DNA of 32,000 bases from Acaryochloris thomasi RCC1774 (GCF_003231495.1 NZ_PQWO01000010.1:120001-152000), one strand, 5' to 3'; shown: positions 3,169 to 24,391, counted from the stretch's first letter. Made by a program: numbers and translations. Notes: generated by a model not told the origin, from the sequence alone.

Positions 3169-4317
3169 GTGAAGACAGTTCTACCCCCGCCTCAGATGTT
3201 ACGACCCCTGTCCCCCATACTTGCGATCGCACTTTTAGGACTGCAAGGCTGCACCGCAATTCAGCCGAGGAATAGCGAGTCTCCACTCCAGCCCGCGACG
3301 ACAGCCCCACCCGCAGTCGATCTGCCCGCAGACAATGAAGACATCGTCAAAGTCGTCGATCAGGTCGGACCTGCCGTCGTTAGAATCAACGCTTCTCGCA
3401 CCGTGGGTCAATCCGATCCCTTCTTTGAGCGGCCTCAAGAACGGACTGAGCGCGGCACAGGCTCAGGCTTTATTTTTGATTCTAAAGGGCTGATTTTGAC
3501 CAATGCCCACGTCGTTGATCAGGCCGATCAGGTGTTTGTTGTCCTCAAAGACGGGCAGCAGTTTCAGGGCGAAGTCCTCGGGGCCGATCCCCTGACAGAC
3601 GTAGCCGTTGTGAAAATTGACGCCCAAGATTTACCCGTCGCCAAACTTGGCAACTCAGAGAACCTCTTGCCAGGACAGTGGGCCATCGCCATTGGTAACC
3701 CCTTGGGGCTGAACAACACCGTCACCGTCGGCATCATCAGCGCCACCGGACGCTCCAGCGCCGCCATTGGTAGTCCTGACCAGCGGGTTGACTTTATTCA
3801 AACCGACGCCGCCATCAATCCCGGCAACTCAGGTGGCCCCCTCCTTGATCTCAGAGGAGAAGTCATTGGCGTCAATACAGCGATTATCAGTGGTGCCCAA
3901 GGCCTAGGGTTTGCGATTCCTGTCGCCGTCGCGAACCGAATTGCCCAACAGCTAATCGCAACCGGGAAAGCCCAGCATGCCTATCTTGGCATTCAGATGG
4001 CAAATCTATCTCCAGAACTGCGGGCGCGGCTGCAGGAGCAACAGCCTGATATCTCACTGCCCGATAGCAAAGGGGTTTTAGTGATGCAGACCGTTCCTAA
4101 CTCGCCCGCTGAGCAAGCTGGGCTTGAGCCGGGCGATCTGATCACTCAAATAAACAAAACGCTCATCGAGGACAGCGAGCAGGTGCAGCAAGTCGTTGAG
4201 GGTACGGTTCCCGGCGATCTGCTTGAGATTGAAGTCAAACGCGAGAATCAAACGCAAGTGCTGCAAGCCAGGGTGGGTGAACTCAAACCGTCCAGCTTCG
4301 AGGAGCGAAATGAGTAG
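3169..4317 (+). CDS. HtrA/DegP-family serine protease with a C-terminal PDZ domain
   Basis: Trypsin-fold motifs are present: TNAHVV (His), DVAVVKI (Asp) and GNSGGPL (Ser). The PDZ-like tail reads [24 protein letters not shown]. The ORF starts at GTG 3169, with an alternative ATG at 3196 that gives a signal peptide ending in the lipobox-like LQGC. Confidence 0.88.
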
Positions 4318-4374: not shown

Positions 4375-5013
4375 CTAGCGGAGGAAACTACTCACCAACC
4401 AAAATATAAACAGAACGGCCACGGTAATCACGGCATCGTCTTGAGCCGCTCCCGCAAGCAGGCCACTTTGATGGAAGCCCTGCAGGAATGCAGCTCCAAT
4501 TAGTCCGCCAATGACCAATGCGGCGAGGGAGAGCAGCACCGCCCGTCCCAGCTTCTGTTCTTTGCGGTTGAGCCAATAGAGATTGATACCAAAGCCAATG
4601 GCGAGCAAGAACTGTAGAACGCTAGGGCTGGCCGCACCGTTCTGCTGAGCCAAGACGCCCACGAGGCCGAGAGCCGCGTAGGTACCGCCCAGTATCGAAA
4701 TTTCTCGGGTGTTGGGGGTATCCATCGTCCGCTGCATCCAGGACGATGACGGGTTCACTCTGGGCAGTGACAGTTTCGGCTGCTTATCCGTGAGCCGCTC
4801 TGCAAACCGGATCCCTTCTGGAACCTTTATTTTGCCTTCTTGGCGCTTACGCAGTCGATCCATAAGAATGGCGTCGTAGGCCACCTCAACCTGCGCTCGG
4901 TTCCGCTCATCGTCTTGATAGACTTTGAACATGCGATCGCGGGCGGATTGGATATCGTCGAAGGTTGCATCTTCTGCAACTTCGAGCTGCTCGTAGGGGG
5001 TCTGCTCGCTCAT
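4375..5013 (-). CDS. J-like domain membrane protein, CPP1/CDF1-like (DUF3353-type)
   Basis: The N-terminus is DnaJ-like without HPD (PYEQLEVAEDATFDDIQSARDRMF). It is followed by about 3 predicted TM helices. The assignment is from memory of the family. Confidence 0.6.
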   Translation of the reverse strand: MSEQTPYEQLEVAEDATFDDIQSARDRMFKVYQDDERNRAQVEVAYDAILMDRLRKRQEGKIKVPEGIRFAERLTDKQPKLSLPRVNPSSSWMQRTMDTPNTREISILGGTYAALGLVGVLAQQNGAASPSVLQFLLAIGFGINLYWLNRKEQKLGRAVLLSLAALVIGGLIGAAFLQGFHQSGLLAGAAQDDAVITVAVLFIFWLVSSFLR

Positions 5014-5761: not shown

Positions 5762-6790
5762 ATGCAACAAATCACCATAACCCAACCCGACGACTGGCAT
5801 CTACATGTACGTGATGGTGAAGTGCTGAAGGCGGTTTTGCCGCACACGGTGCGTCAGTTCTCGCGCGCTATCATCATGCCAAATTTGAAGCCCCCCGTGC
5901 GCTCGGTAGAAGACGCGGCGGCCTATCGAGATCGGATTATCGCAGCGATTCCGGCTGGCAGACAGTTTGAGCCTTTGATGACTCTCTATCTCACCGATAA
6001 CACTAGCCCTGAAGATATTATCGCGGCCAAAGCGTCCCAGTTTGTTAAGGCAGTCAAGTACTATCCAGCCGGGGCTACGACCAATTCAGATTTTGGGGTA
6101 ACGGATATTCGGAGATGCGATCGCATCTTCAAAACAATGCAGGAGGTAGACATGCCTCTATTGCTCCACGGGGAAGTAACCGATCAAGATATTGATGTGT
6201 TCGATCGTGAGAAAGTCTTTATCGAGAAATATTTGATTCCTCTCAAACAGCGATTTCCTAACCTGCGGATCGTGCTGGAGCACATCACCACCTCAGATGC
6301 GGTGGAGTTTGTCCTGGCTGCGGACAACGTGGCTGCAACAATCACACCACAACACCTATTGTTTAACCGCAACGTTCTGTTTAAAGGGGGAATTCGACCC
6401 CATTTTTATTGCTTGCCCATATTAAAGGCTGAAGAGCATCGTCAAGCAATTTTGCAAGCTGCGACTTCTGGCAGTCCTAAGTTTTTTCTGGGGACTGATA
6501 GTGCCCCTCATGCTCGCAACAGCAAAGAAACGTCCTGTGGCTGTGCGGGTTGCTTTTCAGCTCTACATGCACTGGAGCTATACGCAGAAGCTTTTGAGCG
6601 TGCTGATGCACTGGATAAACTTGAAGCTTTCGCCAGCTTCTATGGGCCAGATTTTTATCAGCTCCCACGCAATAATGAACAGGTTACTTTGACCAAATCG
6701 ACTTGGCGTATTCCTGATGAAGTGCCGCTTATTAAATCTGAACTCGTGCCCTTGTGGGCAGGGCATGAGATAACGTGGAAAATGGTTTGA
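5762..6790 (+). CDS. pyrC: Dihydroorotase, class II (E. coli type)
   Basis: [11 protein letters not shown] supplies the metal-binding HxH. The motif [10 protein letters not shown] is present, and the length of 342 aa is typical of homodimeric-type PyrC. Confidence 0.92.
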
Positions 6791-7194
6791 TACTGATTCA
6801 GAACGGCTCACGGTAACATCGGCACCAAACAACTGAGTCTGCACTTGCTTAGCTCGTTAAGAGCAAACAACTTTCTACGGTGCAAAGAATTTTTCTTGAG
6901 AAGGATAACGGCTCGGCCATCAGGGGCGCGAGCAAAAACATTTAAAGAGTAACGAGTTGCTTCAGCCGAGCGTCCTTTGCATGGGCTGGTTAGACACAAC
7001 TAGCACTGATAGCAGACTCTTTTGGATCATAACTGACCCACCCAAAACAAGCCCACTTCGCAATAGAAATTCAAAGCGTAACGCGCCTCAACCGAAACAC
7101 TCAGCAATTGAAACTCAGAGAATTAAAGCGAAGCCACCGAATGCTTGAAAGCGAGACTGGGATTTGGATGAAGGTTTAGGAGTCTAACTACTTA

Positions 7195-7361
7195 TTATAC
7201 GGAATTAATCCTGATATACAGTCCCAATAGGTTTTTATATGGATTGTATTCCACATATCATGTCACCACAGGTGTTTATACGGAAAATTTTCTGTATATC
7301 ATCCCGATTTCAGGATCTTATACGGAAAAAATCCGTATATATCCTCGTGTTCTTTAGGATC
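7195..7361. repeat. Four head-to-tail units of 40-44 bp, iteron-like, each opening with a TATACGGA-N5-6-TCYGTATA dyad
   Basis: Units start at 7195, 7235, 7276 and 7318. The best dyad is TATACGGAaaaaaTCCGTATA at 7319-7339. Units 3 and 4 both end in AGGATC. Confidence 0.75.
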
Positions 7362-7414
7362 GGTTTTTCTATGATTGATATCGAGTCGATTATCAATTGG
7401 AAGTCCTGCTCCTT

Positions 7415-8386
7415 ATGGAAGCTCGCCCAAAAAAGCTGCTTGACCAAGTTCGCGACCGACTTCGCGTCAAACACTATGCCTATAAAACGGAAGAGTGCTA
7501 CGTCAACTGGATTCGTCGCTTTATTCTCTTTCACAACAAGCAGCACCCTAATATGATGGGGCCTGTTGAAGTCGAAGCCTTTCTAACTCACCTAGCCGTA
7601 CATGACCATGTGGCGGCGTCCACTCAAAATCAGGCGCTGAGTGCCTTGCTCTTTCTCTATCGAGATGTTCTACATCGAGATCTAGGAGAAAACATTAATG
7701 CCATTCGAGCCAAGCGTTCCCAACATTTACCAACAGTGCTAACGCCAGACGAGGCTCTTGCTGTCATTGCTCAACTCTCAGGCGTTTATCGATTGGTTGC
7801 TCAACTACTGTACGGTAGCGGTCTACGATTAAAAGAGGCTTTGAGGCTAAGGGTTAAAGACCTAGATTTTTCTCAGAACCAGATCTCAGTTAGAGAGGCA
7901 AAAGGGAGCAAAAGTCGGTTCACTATGCTACCCGTCTGTATCGCAGATCCTCTGAAAGAACATTTACAAGGTGTGAAACGCTTGCATCAGCAAGATCTCG
8001 AACAAGGATATGGTTCTGTTTATTTACCCTATGCGCTAGAACGCAAATACCCCGATGCAGATCGTCAATGGATCTGGCAATACGTTTTCCCTTCGAGTCA
8101 GCGCTCAATCGATCCTCGCAGTCAAATGACTCGCCGACACCATCTCAATGAGAGTAGTCAGCAAAAAGCTGTCAAACAGGCAGCTCGAAAAACAGGCATC
8201 AATAAGCGAATCAGTTGCCATACCTTTCGACACAGCTTTGCAACTCATTTGCTCCAAAATAACTATGACATTCGTACTGTTCAAGAATTGCTCGGTCACA
8301 AGGATGTCAAAACGACTATGATTTATACCCATGTTCTCAACAAAGGAGGAAAAGGTGTTCTCAGTCCTCTCGATGCCTGTGCTTAG
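7415..8386 (+). CDS. intI: Integron-type tyrosine recombinase (IntI family), apparently intact
   Basis: The N-terminus reads [33 protein letters not shown]. The IntI-specific insert [21 protein letters not shown]...DPRS...RRHH is present. The catalytic motifs [12 protein letters not shown] and [29 protein letters not shown] are also present. The first ATG is at 7415, and the ORF track starts at an upstream TTG at 7397. Confidence 0.87.
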
Positions 8387-8388
8387 CA

Positions 8389-8516
8389 TTCAGAGAGACA
8401 GCAGAAATATCGGTCATCTGAGCGTTCCAGATGATGTGCTTGAGGAGCTGTTGGGGCGTTTGCGATCGCAACGCATGCAAGTGTCCTTGGAAGCGCAAGA
8501 CAGCCAAAAAATATCG
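8389..8516 (-). pseudogene. Decayed, start-less copy of the 3' end of the neighbouring rarA-fusion gene
   Basis: The minus-strand reading ..[29 protein letters not shown] aligns to the true C-terminus ..VRSQMTQQLLNQTITWKTQIAYISAFHSA. Segment 8402-8472 matches 9500-9571 at about 70-75 percent identity by hand alignment. The two share the 16-mer TTGAGGAGCTGTTGGG. A TGA at 8517-8519 bounds the frame upstream. Confidence 0.6.
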
Positions 8517-8538
8517 TCACAAGCAGAGCAAGGTGAAC

Positions 8539-8730
8539 CTACTCAACCAGGCAGTCAGCTTGAACAACCCGTTTGATATCTGCAGTCGTTAATCCATCAG
8601 CTTGAATACAGCTTGGCCTTTGAGTCAGTTCTAGCAAAACCTGTGTTTTCGTTTCTCCAGGCTCCAACGCATCAAATAACGCCCAGAGTGCTTCTTCCGG
8701 TAACTCAGTCAAATTAAGAGTGGCTGTCAT
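8539..8730 (-). CDS. Hypothetical 63-aa protein
   Basis: This is an ATG-initiated ORF only, and I recognise no motif. It lies between the remnant and parE. Confidence 0.35.
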   Translation of the reverse strand: MTATLNLTELPEEALWALFDALEPGETKTQVLLELTQRPSCIQADGLTTADIKRVVQADCLVE

Positions 8731-8828
8731 TGTTATCTTCCTCTTGAGGTTGATAAGTAAAGATTCGGCGAACGCTTCTTTGATTGCAATGATGGAACAT
8801 GAGAATCAGCTAAGTAAAACAATCAAAA

Positions 8829-9128
8829 CTAATTATCAAATAGAGCTGATAAGTCACGATAACCACTGACGACCCTCAAGATCTCAATATCTTCGCCGAT
8901 TGGCATGTATAGAATCAGATAACGTTCAAGGGAAAGGCTGCGCAAGTTAGGCAAAATTTCATTCCGCTGCCGCCCCAGGCTTGGGAATTGAGTGATTTTT
9001 ATAAACTTGTCATTCAACTTTGCTAAAAACTGTTCGGCTCGGTCTAGATTGGACTGCTGTGCGATGTAATCTGCAATCTGCTCAATATCTTTAACGGCAG
9101 GCTCAGTTAGGCGAAATTGAGGAGTCAC
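8829..9128 (-). CDS. parE: ParE/RelE-superfamily toxin (type II TA)
   Basis: The protein is 99 aa. It reads FRLTEPAVKDIEQIADYI...FPSLGRQRNEILPNLRSLSLERYLILY...IEILRVVSGYRDLSALF. It overlaps the upstream antitoxin gene by 4 bp. Confidence 0.85.
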   Translation of the reverse strand: MTPQFRLTEPAVKDIEQIADYIAQQSNLDRAEQFLAKLNDKFIKITQFPSLGRQRNEILPNLRSLSLERYLILYMPIGEDIEILRVVSGYRDLSALFDN

Positions 9129-9394
9129 GTGTTACTTGACTCACGGCGGTCTCGTAAGTTAGCTCGAACCTGAGACATAGCGGTAGGACCATCTATGGTC
9201 TGCCCCTGCTGAGATGCTTCCCAACCGATCATGGCATCTTGCTGTAGCTCACCTAAACGCCCTTGATAGATATCTTCCTGCTGTTGTAGCAGTTCAACTG
9301 CAGCGAGGATCAGATCCTCAACACTTTGATATTTATCACTGTTCAGTTGGCGCTGAACGAAAGCTTCAATCTCTGGAGGAAAGGCAAGTTGCAT
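9125..9394 (-). CDS. parD: ParD-family antitoxin
   Basis: FPPEIEAFVQRQLNSDKYQSVEDLILAAVELLQQQE is a typical ParD N-terminus. The ATG is at 9394, and the track starts one codon earlier at a TTG. The gene sits immediately upstream of parE. Confidence 0.8.
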   Translation of the reverse strand: MQLAFPPEIEAFVQRQLNSDKYQSVEDLILAAVELLQQQEDIYQGRLGELQQDAMIGWEASQQGQTIDGPTAMSQVRANLRDRRESSNT

Positions 9395-9441
9395 CAATAC
9401 GACTCGGGTAAACGGGCTATTTTTTGATCCAGTAAAGTACT

Positions 9442-9456
9442 TAGCTATTATAGCTA
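9442..9456 (-). promoter_or_regulatory. Candidate parDE promoter/operator: the dyad TAGCTA-TAA-TAGCTA with a perfect TATAAT -10 box inside it
   Basis: The minus strand reads gaTAGCTATAATAGCTAag, about 50 bp upstream of the parD ATG. TA operons are commonly autoregulated at palindromes that overlap the promoter. Confidence 0.4.
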
Positions 9457-9482
9457 TCCCGTAACTGTTGAGAAGTAGCTCA

Positions 9483-11666
9483 TCATGCTGAATGAAAAGC
9501 CGAAATGTAGGCGATCTGAGTCTTCCAGGTGATGGTTTGGTTGAGGAGCTGTTGGGTCATTTGAGATCGCACCTCTCCCACTTCCCCCTCCGACAAATGC
9601 ACCAACAAGCGGTCCCGATAAGACAACCGCTCCGATGTCGAAGAAAACCACCGCTCCAAAAGCTGCGCTGTCACGTATAAATCAAAGCTACTTTCTTCTA
9701 AAATTACTTCTACCTGTAGCCCCAACTCCTCAAAAAGCTGCTCTACCCCCCCAGGATTTGCAGCCAAATCTCCCACATCATAAAGACATTCCTCCGCCGC
9801 CACCCAGCGATCGTAGAGTCCCGGCTCATTGGGCAAATCCACCAAGTCATACAGTCGCTGACTCTGACTGGGAACGTTCTCAGCCAAAATGATTCTTCCC
9901 GTTGGCTGTAGTAAAGAGACTAACTGCGCCGCAATCTCTGACTGCTGCTCATGCCCCATCAACACATTGCGCCCCACAATCGCATCAAAGGGCTGATCCT
10001 GAAGTGTCTTTTGCAGATCGAGCAGTGCCGTTTGTACAACGATGGGCCGCTGCAGCTCGGGCAACTTTGTGGCCTGGGTCTTCAAATCCTGCGCCGCTTG
10101 TAGATCTGCAACACAAGCATAAACGCTGCCTTCTGGCACTTGGCGCAGGGCTTCCCAAGTTAGGAGTCCGGTTCTGGCCTGCAGGTCTAACACCACGTGA
10201 TGTCGCTGAAGTTTTGTTAGAGAGAAAATGCGATCGCGTATCTCCCCTGCATGGTTTCCAGCCTGCCCAATTGTTCGCTGCAGCCACCGATCCTGAGCAT
10301 GATTGACGGGGCTGTAGCTCACCACATCCGCCATCGACTCACCACTATCAAGCTGAGCCTCCCGCCTTCGTGAAACCTGCGCTGCAATTTCAGCTTCCCA
10401 ACCTTGATCAGAGGGCTGATAAAAAACCTGCCCCTGGAGGTTATTGGGCAAATATTGCTGGGCGACCCAGTGATCGCGGTAGGCATGGGGATATTTATAG
10501 TTGGCACCGTGGCCGAACTGTTTGCTGTCCCGACTCCCATCCTTCAGCGGATTGGGCACCTCCATTTCCCGTTCTTTCTCCACCGCAGAAAGCGCATCAA
10601 AGTAGCCCAAGACGCTATTAGATTTTGGGGCTGCAGCTAAATACAAAGCCGCCTGAGCCAAAGGATATTGGCCCTCCGGCAAACCCACGCGATCAAAGGC
10701 TTGAGCACAGGCCATCACCACCCCCACCGCCTGCGGATCGGCCAGTCCCACATCTTCGCTAGCAAAAATCACCATCCGGCGAAAGATAAATCGCGGATCT
10801 TCTCCGGCATAGACCATCCGCGCTAGCCAGTAGATCGCTGCGTCGGGGTCAGACCCGCGCATACTTTTGATGAAGGCGCTGATCGTGTCGAAGTGAGCGT
10901 CGCCTTCTTTGTCGTACAAAATTGCCCGTCGTTGTATAGATGCCTCTGCGATCGCAAGTGTAATTGCGATCGTACCTGTCACGTCTGGCTCCGTCGTCTC
11001 CACCGCTAGCTCCAGCGCATTCAGCAAAGCACGAGCATCGCCATTGGCAATATTGATCAAATGCACCAGGGCTTCAGGTTCCAGCTCAATCGTTTTTTTG
11101 CCGTACCCCTGCTCTTGATCCGCCAAAGCCCGATGCACAACCTGCCTTAGGTCGTCCGGAGCCAGTGGCTTGAGCTGGAAAATACGAGAGCGACTAACTA
11201 AAGCTTTATTGACCTCAAAGTAAGGATTCTCCGTCGTTGCCCCAATCAAAATCAGCGTTCCGTTTTCGACCCAGGGCAGCAGAGCATCTTGCTGAGCCTT
11301 GTTAAACCGGTGGACCTCATCTACGAAAAGAATCGTGCGTTGACTGCGCTGCCCTCGCAGGTGTTGCGCGGTATCAACGGCTTCACGAATAGCTTTAACG
11401 CCAGCCAGCACCGCGTTGATCGAAATGAAGTGAGCCAGCGTCGTGTTGGCAATAATCCGGGCCAGCGTCGTTTTCCCGGTGCCAGGGGGGCCATAAAAGA
11501 TTAGGGATGAAAGCTGATCGGCTTGAATCGCCCGCCGCAATAACCGACCTGGCCCCACAATGGCAGACTGCCCTACAAATTCATCTAGTGTATGCGGGCG
11601 CAATCGCGCGGCAAGGGGGGCTTCAGATTCAATGAGCTGCTGGCGCTGGTGATCAAACAAATCCAT
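9483..11666 (-). CDS. rarA: RarA/MgsA-type AAA+ ATPase fused to a C-terminal class-I methyltransferase-like domain
   Basis: The N-terminal ~440 aa carry LRPHTLDEFVGQ, the Walker A motif GPPGTGKTT, the Walker B motif ILFVDEVHRFNK, and the MgsA C-terminal region. The C-terminal ~280 aa carry VVLDLQARTGLLT and AIVGRNVL, which suggest a Rossmann-type methyltransferase fold. Confidence 0.85.
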   Translation of the reverse strand: MDLFDHQRQQLIESEAPLAARLRPHTLDEFVGQSAIVGPGRLLRRAIQADQLSSLIFYGPPGTGKTTLARIIANTTLAHFISINAVLAGVKAIREAVDTAQHLRGQRSQRTILFVDEVHRFNKAQQDALLPWVENGTLILIGATTENPYFEVNKALVSRSRIFQLKPLAPDDLRQVVHRALADQEQGYGKKTIELEPEALVHLINIANGDARALLNALELAVETTEPDVTGTIAITLAIAEASIQRRAILYDKEGDAHFDTISAFIKSMRGSDPDAAIYWLARMVYAGEDPRFIFRRMVIFASEDVGLADPQAVGVVMACAQAFDRVGLPEGQYPLAQAALYLAAAPKSNSVLGYFDALSAVEKEREMEVPNPLKDGSRDSKQFGHGANYKYPHAYRDHWVAQQYLPNNLQGQVFYQPSDQGWEAEIAAQVSRRREAQLDSGESMADVVSYSPVNHAQDRWLQRTIGQAGNHAGEIRDRIFSLTKLQRHHVVLDLQARTGLLTWEALRQVPEGSVYACVADLQAAQDLKTQATKLPELQRPIVVQTALLDLQKTLQDQPFDAIVGRNVLMGHEQQSEIAAQLVSLLQPTGRIILAENVPSQSQRLYDLVDLPNEPGLYDRWVAAEECLYDVGDLAANPGGVEQLFEELGLQVEVILEESSFDLYVTAQLLERWFSSTSERLSYRDRLLVHLSEGEVGEVRSQMTQQLLNQTITWKTQIAYISAFHSA

Positions 11667-17455: not shown

Positions 17456-17504
17456 AAAAAGCAAAAAGCCCTTGGGCGTCTTTCCTTGTTTCGACTCCAA
17501 GAGC
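17456..17504 (-). terminator. Intrinsic terminator of sRNA copy B
   Basis: The stem is 8+3 bp (GCTCTTGG/CCAAGGGC with an inner GTC/GAC). It is followed by TTTTTGCTTTTT on the minus strand. Confidence 0.6.
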
Positions 17505-17530
17505 TGTTTTGCTAATCACTCCTCACATTC
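17456..17530 (-). ncRNA. Small RNA candidate, copy B (Yfr2-family-like)
   Basis: On the minus strand there is a -10-like TACATT (17539-17534). It is followed by AUGUGAGGAGUGAU, then the hairpin GCUCUUGGAGUC-GAAACAAGGAAA-GACGCCCAAGGGC (17504-17468), then UUUUUGCUUUUU. Confidence 0.5.
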
Positions 17531-17615
17531 ACAAATGTAGTGGTTGCCACTACGCTTATGCGGTTACTTAGTGACACTTCGTTGAGTGTCCACCGTTGAA
17601 AGCTGAATTTTGCAC

Positions 17616-17660
17616 AAAAAAAAGCTCTCGGGCGTCTTTCCTTGTTTCGACTCCAAGAGC
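17616..17660 (-). terminator. Intrinsic terminator of sRNA copy A
   Basis: The stem is GCTCTTGG/CCGAGAGC with an inner GTC/GAC. It is followed by T8 on the minus strand. Relative to copy B, the substitutions in the stem preserve base pairing. Confidence 0.65.
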
Positions 17661-17685
17661 TTCTTTATAAATCACTCCTCACACC
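17616..17685 (-). ncRNA. Small RNA candidate, copy A (Yfr2-family-like)
   Basis: On the minus strand there is a -10-like TAGATT (17695-17690). It is followed by GGUGUGAGGAGUGAU, which is the exact complement of ACUCCUCACAC. Next comes the hairpin GCUCUUGGAGUC-GAAACAAGGAAA-GACGCCCGAGAGC (17660-17624), then U8. Confidence 0.5.
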
Positions 17686-17778
17686 TAATAATCTACAGGG
17701 GAGTAGGGAGAAGGTTGCGATCGCAAGTGCCACTTTCTGAACTGTCAGCCCAGAGCTGATCCCACCCTCACACCTTAT

Positions 17779-22927: not shown

Positions 22928-24391
22928 CTACTTAGCCTTAGATTTTTTTGGTTGCGATGGTTTATTTTTCACCTTTGGCTTTGCCGATGACCGCACCTTC
23001 TGATCTGACTGGGTTACTTTTTTGCGTTGCGCTTTGGGTTTTGTTGCTTTCGTTACTTTAGCTTTTGGCTTTGCTTGTTTCAGAGTATTTTGTGCCGGTT
23101 TGGTCTTAGTTCGGCGCTTCATGGTCGACTTTGTAGGCTGCCGCACGTTCTGAGCTGACTGGGTTGTTTTTTTGCGTTGCGCTTTTGGCTTTGTTGCTTT
23201 CGTTGCTTTAGCTTTTGGCTTTGCTTGTTGCGAAATATTTTGTGCCGGTTTGGCTTTAGCCCGGCGCTTCATGATCGGCTTTGCAAGTTGCTGACCGTTC
23301 TGAGCTGGCTGGGGCTCTTTTTTGCGTTGAGCCTTGGTTCTTGTTGTTTTCAGCGCTTTAGCTTTTGGCTTTGCTTGCCGCAGAATATTTCGCGCTGATT
23401 TAGCTTTGGTCCGGCGCTTCACGGTCGGCTTTGCTGTCTTTGCCGTTTTGCCTTTAGGCTTCTCTAGTTCAGTCTCGTTCATATCAAGACTAGGATAAGA
23501 ACGCATTGGTGTCCGGTAAGCATTCTTTGGGCGTACAAATCTGTGTCTTACCCATTGATGTCTAAGAGAAAGCCACAAATGTCTTTGTTGAAAGGATGGT
23601 TGCTGAACAACTTGGAGCCCCTCCTTATATCGAAAAATGGGAATCCCAAGATTAACCCATTGATCAGGAACACTCCCATCTTCGTTCGTTTCTTTGCGCC
23701 CATGAATAGCAATCACATGGCCATACCGATTGAAAACTGGGCCGCCACTCATGCCACTACGCGTAAAGTTGCTGTAGGCAACACTATATCCATCTCGTCC
23801 TGCTTTAGGAAAAAGGGTAGTAATTTTACCTGTCGTGATAAAAAATACAGGGTTTTGAATGTTGAGTCCAGGCGTTGGATAGCCAGCGACGTGAACTTCA
23901 TCAGCTTCTCGAACTTGCTCAAATTCACCTAAGGGAGCAACATCATAATTTTCGTCACTTTCGAACTGAAATCTTGCCAAGTCAAGACCTGGAAATCTTT
24001 GAACATTTTGGACTGGGTATTGAAACTCATCTTTAATTTTGACAGTAAATGGGGCATCACTCTCTAGTACATGAGCTGCCGTCAGAACTGCATATGTATT
24101 GCCTTTCTTCGCAATAATCACTCCAGAGGCAAAGTGCTCGGGATCCTGACTATTTTGAATGAAAGCTGTAGTATTTCTGGCAATTTCGTGAACTTCTTCT
24201 GCTCTTTTCTGGTCAATAGCTTCTTGGTTGGTTAGGTAAACTTTTTCTTCCTTAACCTTTTCCTTTTCTGTAACTTGACCAAAGGCTGGATAGTTGGTAG
24301 CAAAGGGCTGAACCAGGGTAACCATGGCTCCAGTTAACCCTGCCATCAATGTGTATAGAAATTTCATAAGCGCACTCATCGCTGAATACAT
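22928..24391 (-). CDS. Secreted trypsin-like (S1/S1C-type) serine protease with a long lysine-rich repeated C-terminal tail
   Basis: There is a hydrophobic N-terminus. LTAAHVL supplies the His and GMSGGPVF the Ser. The last ~190 aa are K/R/A/Q/P-rich with 50-aa periodicity. Confidence 0.8.
   Translation of the reverse strand: MYSAMSALMKFLYTLMAGLTGAMVTLVQPFATNYPAFGQVTEKEKVKEEKVYLTNQEAIDQKRAEEVHEIARNTTAFIQNSQDPEHFASGVIIAKKGNTYAVLTAAHVLESDAPFTVKIKDEFQYPVQNVQRFPGLDLARFQFESDENYDVAPLGEFEQVREADEVHVAGYPTPGLNIQNPVFFITTGKITTLFPKAGRDGYSVAYSNFTRSGMSGGPVFNRYGHVIAIHGRKETNEDGSVPDQWVNLGIPIFRYKEGLQVVQQPSFQQRHLWLSLRHQWVRHRFVRPKNAYRTPMRSYPSLDMNETELEKPKGKTAKTAKPTVKRRTKAKSARNILRQAKPKAKALKTTRTKAQRKKEPQPAQNGQQLAKPIMKRRAKAKPAQNISQQAKPKAKATKATKPKAQRKKTTQSAQNVRQPTKSTMKRRTKTKPAQNTLKQAKPKAKVTKATKPKAQRKKVTQSDQKVRSSAKPKVKNKPSQPKKSKAK
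23009..23458 (-). repeat. Three in-frame 150-bp tandem repeats encoding the polycationic tail
   Basis: Units start at 23009, 23159 and 23309 on the plus strand, each beginning ctgggtt/ctggggc. The encoded units are AKP.(V/M)KRR.KAK.A.NI..QAKPKAK..K.T..KAQRKK. Confidence 0.88.

Follow-up and report, generated by a model that had tools for sequence, protein, structure and literature searches.

A decaying duplicate of the rarA gene end beside an In0-like integron of Acaryochloris thomasi RCC1774, probably an old insertion scar with the integrase as a bystander

A window of 32,000 nt, i.e. the whole stretch of DNA analysed here, was taken from Acaryochloris thomasi RCC1774 (GCF_003231495.1 NZ_PQWO01000010.1:120001-152000; positions 6,791 to 11,666 are shown). 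It carries an integron integrase gene (intI) and, on the opposite strand, a rarA (MgsA) gene fused to a methyltransferase-like domain. Positions 8387-8470, directly downstream of intI, are a real but displaced second copy of the final ~28 rarA-fusion codons, which is non-functional and decaying neutrally. The locus is probably an old insertion scar of the resident rarA end, lying beside an In0-like integron whose integrase IntI was a bystander; a four-step history is proposed for it below. The comparison with relatives supports the view that the DNA between this remnant (copy B) and the live gene end (copy C) consists of several acquisitions accumulated downstream of rarA. An earlier note on this DNA had suggested that IntI built tandem islands at the 3' end of rarA. 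Because the same scar was found in relatives without intI and without the toxin-antitoxin pair of the window, it is no evidence for such island building; the scar is real but ordinary, and the suggestion is not supported. The features concerned are the following.

8387-8470, minus strand: remnant B, decaying duplicate of the last ~28 rarA codons, found by alignment and nhmmer
8462-8469, no strand: HIP1 octamer GCGATCGC, inner border of the remnant and duplication breakpoint, with the same border in the metagenome contigs L168 and L167
9483-9571, minus strand: live copy C, functional rarA 3' end (stop codon 9483-9485), with its HIP1 site mutated to GAGATCGC
9483-11666, minus strand: rarA (MgsA) fusion gene of 727 aa, AAA+ ATPase plus methyltransferase-like domain (NF009881)
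7415-8386, plus strand: intI, integron integrase of 323 aa (ATG at 7415; open reading frame opens at TTG 7397; stop codon 8384-8386; TIGR02249)
8471-8809, minus strand: orf63 block with the conserved small gene orf63 (8539-8730), collinear with the metagenome contigs L167-L171
8810-~9475, minus strand: parDE module, with parE at 8829-9128 and parD at 9125-9397 (PF05016 for ParE)
9447-9452, minus strand: -10 box TATAAT of the parDE promoter

The similarity of the two gene ends is far above chance. Local alignment of 8400-8470 with 9498-9571 gave a score of 73, against a mean of 15.6 (sd 2.3, maximum 25) in 500 shuffles, and an nhmmer profile built from the rarA ends of relatives alone had two notable hits, 9571-9481 with E 2.4e-24 and 8470-8391 with E 2.3e-14. 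The second rarA end reported in the earlier note directly after the intI stop codon is thereby confirmed, as is the 16-mer TTGAGGAGCTGTTGGG, which occurs in the window at 8440-8455 and 9541-9556 only. The strong similarity to the live copy spans 8400-8470, while the tail of the remnant (8387-8399) matches the live rarA tail of L082, another short metagenome contig. Both in the window and in L168, direct repeats containing the gene end flank the insert. The only open reading frames (ORFs) between the window repeats are orf63, parE and parD, with no integrase or excision functions among them. In folding, neither copies B and C nor the junction segments surpass shuffled sequences (z -0.86 to +0.91).

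A third, weaker rarA-end patch had been proposed after the stop codon of pyrC, the left neighbour gene (6796-6840), at the place where the ancestral rarA end would be expected had pyrC and rarA formed a convergent pair. This patch is due to chance: 6791-6860 scored 16, a value reached by 150 of the 500 shuffles, and the rarA-end profile had no match over 6700-7400 even at E<=100. The window thus holds one remnant and not two decayed copies. As pyrC lies near rarA in no relative fetched, the idea of a former convergent pair is left without support. The interval is AT-richer, as had been noticed by eye (GC content 0.42-0.46 for 6791-9475 compared to 0.54 for rarA and 0.51 for the window). A single HIP1 site is indeed seen in 6791-9482; the depletion read from it is not significant, since the 21 HIP1 sites in 32 kb lead to an expectation of about 1.8 in this interval and the argument is therefore weak.

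The decisive comparison was provided by stromatolite metagenome contigs (L167-L171), in which a 728-aa rarA fusion is directly followed by an orf63 homolog. L168 (Logan assembly) and L167 (ENA assembly) were both assembled from run SRR3310977. The order in L168 is rarA, orf63, a 68-nt spacer, HIP1 (2959-2966) and a second copy of the rarA end, the latter scoring 79 compared to 18.7±2.5 for shuffles. Between its repeats L168 carries only orf63 and one non-conserved ORF, and these stromatolite contigs are without intI and without parDE. Window positions 8425-8809 are collinear with L168 at 85% identity, crossing the same junction. L167 represents a second haplotype, which is the same up to HIP1 (4827-4834), after which the remnant is mostly deleted; L169-L171 all terminate at the HIP1 site. 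In three haplotypes (window, L168, L167) the inner border of the rarA-end duplicate coincides exactly with the HIP1 octamer, and in the live copy of the window the site has been lost (GAGATCGC at 9563-9570). At the DNA level, nothing of the rarA repeat was found to continue past the stop codon into the next gene in L168 and L167. The N-termini of two short ORFs in the same test matched over 14 residues only (E=0.007 in a single pairwise comparison), and this match is treated as unproven.

These contigs bear directly on the explanation put forward in the earlier note, that the rarA 3' end was entered successively by an element with the iterons and intI and by one with orf63 and parDE, each bringing a surrogate gene end and leaving a decayed copy behind, with IntI as the integrase. 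The decayed copy directly after intI, the AT-richness of the interval and the resemblance of L082 to an empty site for the orf63/parDE interval speak in its favour. However, the finding of the remnant and the same junction in L168, without intI and parDE, is the outcome which that note had itself named as refuting, and the explanation is already contradicted by it. The third copy is not real, orf63 and parDE are unlike in age and distribution, the copies were near-identical at their origin, no attC-like structure is present, and the candidate attI of intI faces the other way. Two successive elements of this kind are very unlikely.

The junction between intI and rarA is also seen in L082. Its IntI is 90% identical to that of the window, and intI and a live rarA fusion are convergent there with stop codons 2 nt apart, without orf63, parDE or any insert between them. 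The stretch 7332-8470 of the window, covering intI and the remnant, aligns collinearly to L082 1-1158 (80%). Window 8387-8399 and L082 1058-1084 have the last ~7 codons of the rarA end in common (VSLNAK.., DHLKPESI-stop), which is exclusive to these two; other rarA tails are VYAAK-stop, FLAAQ-stop and FHSA-stop (L001, L168 and the live copy of the window). Since the rarA ends abutting intI have different last ~7 codons, the integron junction lies within the outermost 3' part of that gene. That intI was carried in on an island with a gene-end copy at either border does not agree with L082, where intI abuts one live rarA end.

The searches among more distant loci gave no further example. No intI, parDE, orf63 or pyrC was found near 80 rarA-fusion loci from reference genomes, and L001, the closest of these (86% amino-acid identity), showed no shared synteny downstream of rarA. 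In none of 80 metagenome IntI loci (60-72% identical) was a convergent rarA fusion present. A homolog search with the RarA C-terminus, a comparison of the insert with a plasmid collection and an Rfam scan of the interval between pyrC and rarA were all without a match, and exact-protein look-ups with the IntI and RarA of the window returned nothing on record. As a separate observation, an ORF with rarA-like N-terminal similarity lies ~30 nt after intI on the same strand in L118 (1208-1428) and L115 (1129-1518), the L115 ORF having just 129 aa; the IntI proteins of these loci are 64-65% identical to that of the window. This could be a second, independent adjacency of intI and rarA, or a coincidence.

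For the origin of the remnant, six rarA ends were aligned, namely four live copies and two remnants (window and L168). The live ends are mutually 82-89% identical, the same range being found for the live end of the window towards those of its relatives. Identity of the window remnant amounts to 83% with its own live copy and to 75% with the remnant of L168. A single site is common to both remnants against all live copies, which indicates that their ancestor was essentially the resident rarA end and not a diverged foreign surrogate. Between lineages the remnants are 71% identical, as is the neighbouring non-coding spacer, while the live end is 84% identical; the equal divergence of remnant and spacer points to neutral decay. 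Each remnant has drifted independently after the duplication. A surrogate gene end carried by a foreign element, as had been assumed, is not indicated, as the copies were near-identical when formed. The opposite possibility, a foreign live end, was rejected: identity to L082 does not fall across 9571, and no clear mosaic step was seen along rarA in comparison with L168 and L001.

The orf63 block of the window is 85-86% identical to and collinear with L167-L171. Differences in orf63 fall mostly on third codon positions (7/1/14 for positions 1/2/3), so it is a real gene, and a homolog (P0241) is 89% identical. The stretch upstream of it is 90% conserved, and on its other side a neutral spacer of 68 nt reaches to HIP1. 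With 85.7% identity compared to 80.8% for rarA, the block diverges about like host genes. We regard orf63 as a small conserved domain of unknown function. Weak matches of orf63 were also noticed to the 63-aa protein P0246, encoded upstream of an ABC permease gene, and to three proteins of 1648-2207 aa, each of which has 8-12 repeats of the matching stretch.

Could the orf63 block be a small non-autonomous site-specific module, like a cis-mobilisable element, which uses the rarA end from HIP1 as att sites and a recombinase encoded elsewhere? Gene-3'-end direct repeats flank the block and leave the gene intact, the HIP1 breakpoint is identical in window, L168 and L167, L082 is without the block, and the stromatolite contigs either stop at HIP1 (L169-L171) or go on in two different ways (L167, L168). 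Against these points, no recombinase is present in or beside the block in L167/L168, its divergence is that of host genes, and the remnants, with their one shared change, act as independently decaying resident copies. Among the fetched relatives the block was seen at no location other than the rarA-end site; P0246, the one further family member that was fetched, is an ordinary small gene without rarA in its vicinity. A mobile module of this type is unlikely.

In contrast to the orf63 block, parDE was found at this locus in the window lineage only and is absent from L167-L171; the assumption that orf63 and parDE came in as one insertion does not hold, because the orf63 block with its remnant is present where parDE is absent, and two events of different ages are required. 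The window module (8810-~9475) has replaced about 112 nt of the spacer that separates rarA from orf63 in L168, and the spacer by the window parD promoter has no significant similarity to the L168 spacer. The genes overlap by 4 nt (9125-9128) with parD upstream, and the unit extends from an TAGCTATAAT promoter to ~20-35 nt past the parE stop codon. ParE scored 64.7 bits against PF05016 (cutoff 23), and the ParD match was weak, under the curated cutoffs (PF03693 17 bits, cutoff 21; TIGR02606 22.6 bits, cutoff 46.2). With its ParE domain and an upstream overlapping antitoxin gene, although ParD is weakly matched, the module has the composition of a type II toxin-antitoxin system. Relatives with 72-80% amino-acid identity keep the same TAGCTATAAT promoter and are situated in an ABC-transporter operon, between the binding-protein gene and the permease gene, in marine cyanobacterial genomes and metagenome-assembled genomes, as listed here.

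L083 1480-2160: parDE unit, ABC-transporter operon spacer
L084 4660-5340: parDE unit, ABC-transporter operon spacer

Neither flanking repeats around parDE nor orf63 were found in L083-L085. From these comparisons parDE is best described as a separate, later and portable module without recognisable ends, which recurs in unrelated intergenic spacers. A perfect 9-bp inverted repeat was noted near the ends of the window module (AGCTAAGTA at 8808-8816, TACTTAGCT at 9438-9446).

The side of intI facing pyrC contains the remaining parts of the locus.

5762-6790, plus strand: pyrC (dihydroorotase), left neighbour outside the feature (TIGR00856, 518.8 bits)
6791-7182, no strand: non-coding, AT-rich spacer (GC content 0.42 for 6791-7396) without an attC-like hairpin
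7183-7341, no strand: candidate attI region of predicted function, with GTCTAAC and three palindromic iterons
7196-7218, 7277-7298 and 7319-7341: the palindromic iterons, TATACGGA-N6-TCCGTATA

The gene calls made earlier for intI, ParE, pyrC and a full-length 727-aa RarA-methyltransferase fusion are correct according to the family profile scores. RarA reached 1203.7 bits with NF009881 (positions 1-722/736), with the domains MgsA_C, AAA_assoc_2 and Methyltransf_12, and showed 86-88% amino-acid identity to L001 and L167-L169. The window IntI scored 477 bits with TIGR02249 (cutoff 265; model positions 1-314/315), also matched PF13495 and PF00589, and is 100% identical to the annotated A. thomasi RCC1774 protein P0001; by this measure, intI encodes a bona fide integron integrase. 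Homologs of IntI with 60-74% identity are common among cyanobacteria, many of them in complete integrons, and integrons have been noted in Cyanobacteria (PMC4889954, PMC2426708).

Upstream of intI, GTCTAAC stands at 7183-7189, and its reverse complement GTTAGAC fits GTTRRRY. Across loci, iterons of the form TATACGGA-N6-TCCG(T/C)(A/C)TATA are found 5' of intI after an RYYYAAC motif. In L081 the same layout as in the window was observed (3278-3540), with GCCTAAC followed by an ATATACGGA..TCCGCCTATAT array. Iteron 3 is conserved in L082 (1-20), and the iterons are kept between IntI loci of just 73% identity; in 11 of 65 loci, half-sites are enriched in the region preceding intI, compared to 0.024 per 400 nt elsewhere. 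The iterons may be attI accessory IntI-binding sites or an intI operator. The stretch 7183-7341 is a candidate attI region on the 5' side of intI, facing pyrC.

A motif-plus-fold scan detected 24 attC hairpins of 61-132 nt across the fetched related loci, including two of 87 nt, accompanied by the iteron array, on the 5' side of intI in L081. In the window no attC was found by the RYYYAAC...GTTRRRY pair scan with folding, which is not the IntegronFinder covariance model. The sole motif pair lies inside parE (9012-9112) and has no attC-type hairpin closed by both motifs; it reaches -21 kcal/mol over 101 nt, compared to -38 to -41 kcal/mol over 87 nt for the attC sites of L081. An intI without recognisable attC has been termed In0 (Cury et al. 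2016, PMC4889954). With the candidate attI and iterons on the other side and no attC in the window, the locus looks like an In0-like integron with its recombination side towards pyrC, away from the rarA scar. The insert is on the 3' side of intI, whereas the cassettes and attC sites of relatives are on the 5' side. The claim that IntI was the agent of the gene-end insertion is thus without a link: no attC-like hairpin was found in the repeats or the insert, and the candidate attI is opposite.

Toxin-antitoxin cassettes occur in Vibrio chromosomal integrons, and parDE, or orf63 together with parDE, was considered as a gene cassette captured by the adjacent IntI. The module and a bona fide intI are no more than 0.5 kb apart, and copy C contains GTTGGGT (9552-9558), which corresponds to GTTRRRY. 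However, the only motif pair is the one inside parE, lacking an attC-type hairpin, copies B and C are unfolded (z about 0), the segment is 3' of intI while cassettes and attC of relatives are 5', and homologous parDE modules are found in a non-integron operon. With no attC hairpin at its end and a position on the wrong side of intI, the cassette was rejected as extremely unlikely.

The old insertion scar, which remains our preferred explanation, may have formed as follows. In a first step, ~0.45 kb with orf63 would have entered the rarA 3' end in an ancestor common to A. thomasi and the stromatolite relatives. The breakpoint would have been at HIP1 and the resident end duplicated, with the proximal copy keeping rarA intact and the distal copy becoming the scar. 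The compared haplotypes document this insertion and duplication as an event, and we infer its mechanism. After integration by a single crossover, the insert has a copy of the homologous segment at either end, and the most likely route would be short-homology integration, either by a Campbell-type single crossover of a circle or by homology-facilitated illegitimate recombination after natural transformation. In a second step, the integron platform (intI, iterons and the candidate attI on the far side) would have come to abut a rarA end, which thereby gained different last ~7 codons; the junction is common to A. thomasi and L082. In a third step, the two rarA ends may have served as substrates for homologous recombination, L082 losing the orf63 block by repeat-to-repeat deletion. 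Alternatively, A. thomasi may have received the block by allelic recombination. In a fourth step, confined to the A. thomasi lineage, parDE would have replaced ~112 nt of the rarA-orf63 spacer. IntI has no demonstrable part in any of the four steps.

Several points weigh against this account. How the original duplication took place cannot be observed, and no donor molecule or circle is known. L082 is a Logan contig of 1.36 kb and might conceivably reflect collapsed assembly across similar repeats. Steps two and three may have come in either order, and a deletion in L082 or an import into A. thomasi would each fit, the three lineages being about equally distant (80-82% nt identity). The window attC scan used motif and fold only. 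Finally, a breakpoint located exactly on HIP1 in three haplotypes could point to a sequence-specific process, and this unexplained coincidence is the reason to keep a small probability for such a process. In that case the HIP1-to-stop stretch of rarA would be a sequence-specific site at which small modules without an integrase repeatedly enter and leave, which we judge clearly improbable. The patchy occurrence of the orf63 block, the partial deletion of the L167 remnant and the integron junction would then all result from HIP1-associated or trans-acting site-specific recombination, possibly with the abutting IntI acting on a non-attC site, and not from a single old accident with homologous recombination after it.

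An assembly artefact, in which the second copy or the empty site stems from mis-joined contigs, has next to no probability. L082, L168 and L169-L171 are short metagenome contigs, several of which end at HIP1. However, the orf63-HIP1-remnant junction is present in the A. thomasi isolate genome as well as in L168 and L167, at 71-86% identity, and the copies, being 76-83% identical, are too different to collapse in assembly.

The main value of these results is a correction. A gene-end duplicate located by intI mimics island building by IntI, and the relatives show the integrase to be a bystander. The locus may also be useful as a dated example of an insertion scar in neutral decay, next to a twin copy that selection maintains. 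The HIP1 octamer exactly at a rearrangement breakpoint in three haplotypes may be of use too, as may a parDE unit that, in marine cyanobacteria, moves from one intergenic spacer to another in unrelated operons.

Elsewhere in the window, two tandem copies of the Cyano-1 small RNA (Rfam RF01701, 47-51 bits, gathering threshold 41) were found on the minus strand at 17457-17532 and 17614-17688. Twelve copies of a 123-nt periodic coding repeat, WD40-like judged by its period, occupy 1359-2894, and three 150-nt tandem repeats in a region of extreme AT skew lie at 22968-23417.

Integrative elements and islands are known to insert at the 3' end of protein genes and to restore it with an element-borne end, their integrase-less derivatives being cis-mobilisable elements. 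Like these, the window has gene-end direct repeats flanking an AT-richer insert, an intact gene and a displaced copy at the far border. Unlike these, its insert has no integrase or excisionase, no mobility was seen, the copies were near-identical at origin with one decaying neutrally, the structure is inherited in relatives, and the insert measured only about 0.45 kb before parDE. The arrangement of homology, insert and homology, with initially identical copies of which the proximal one is continuous with the gene, resembles Campbell-type integration and homology-facilitated illegitimate recombination. Such models do not predict the exact HIP1 breakpoint, and an integration of this kind would be conjectural here. 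The parDE module is like chromosomal type II parDE in its PF05016 ParE, its 4-nt overlap and its own TAGCTATAAT promoter, and differs in a ParD under the curated cutoffs and in a unit recurring in unrelated spacers without recognisable ends. The integron, in turn, shares with In0 chromosomal integrons an IntI above the TIGR02249 cutoff, a candidate attI with iterons on the 5' side and no detected attC, while its cassette side, in contrast to L081 and other complete cyanobacterial integrons, is 0.4 kb of non-coding DNA ending at pyrC.

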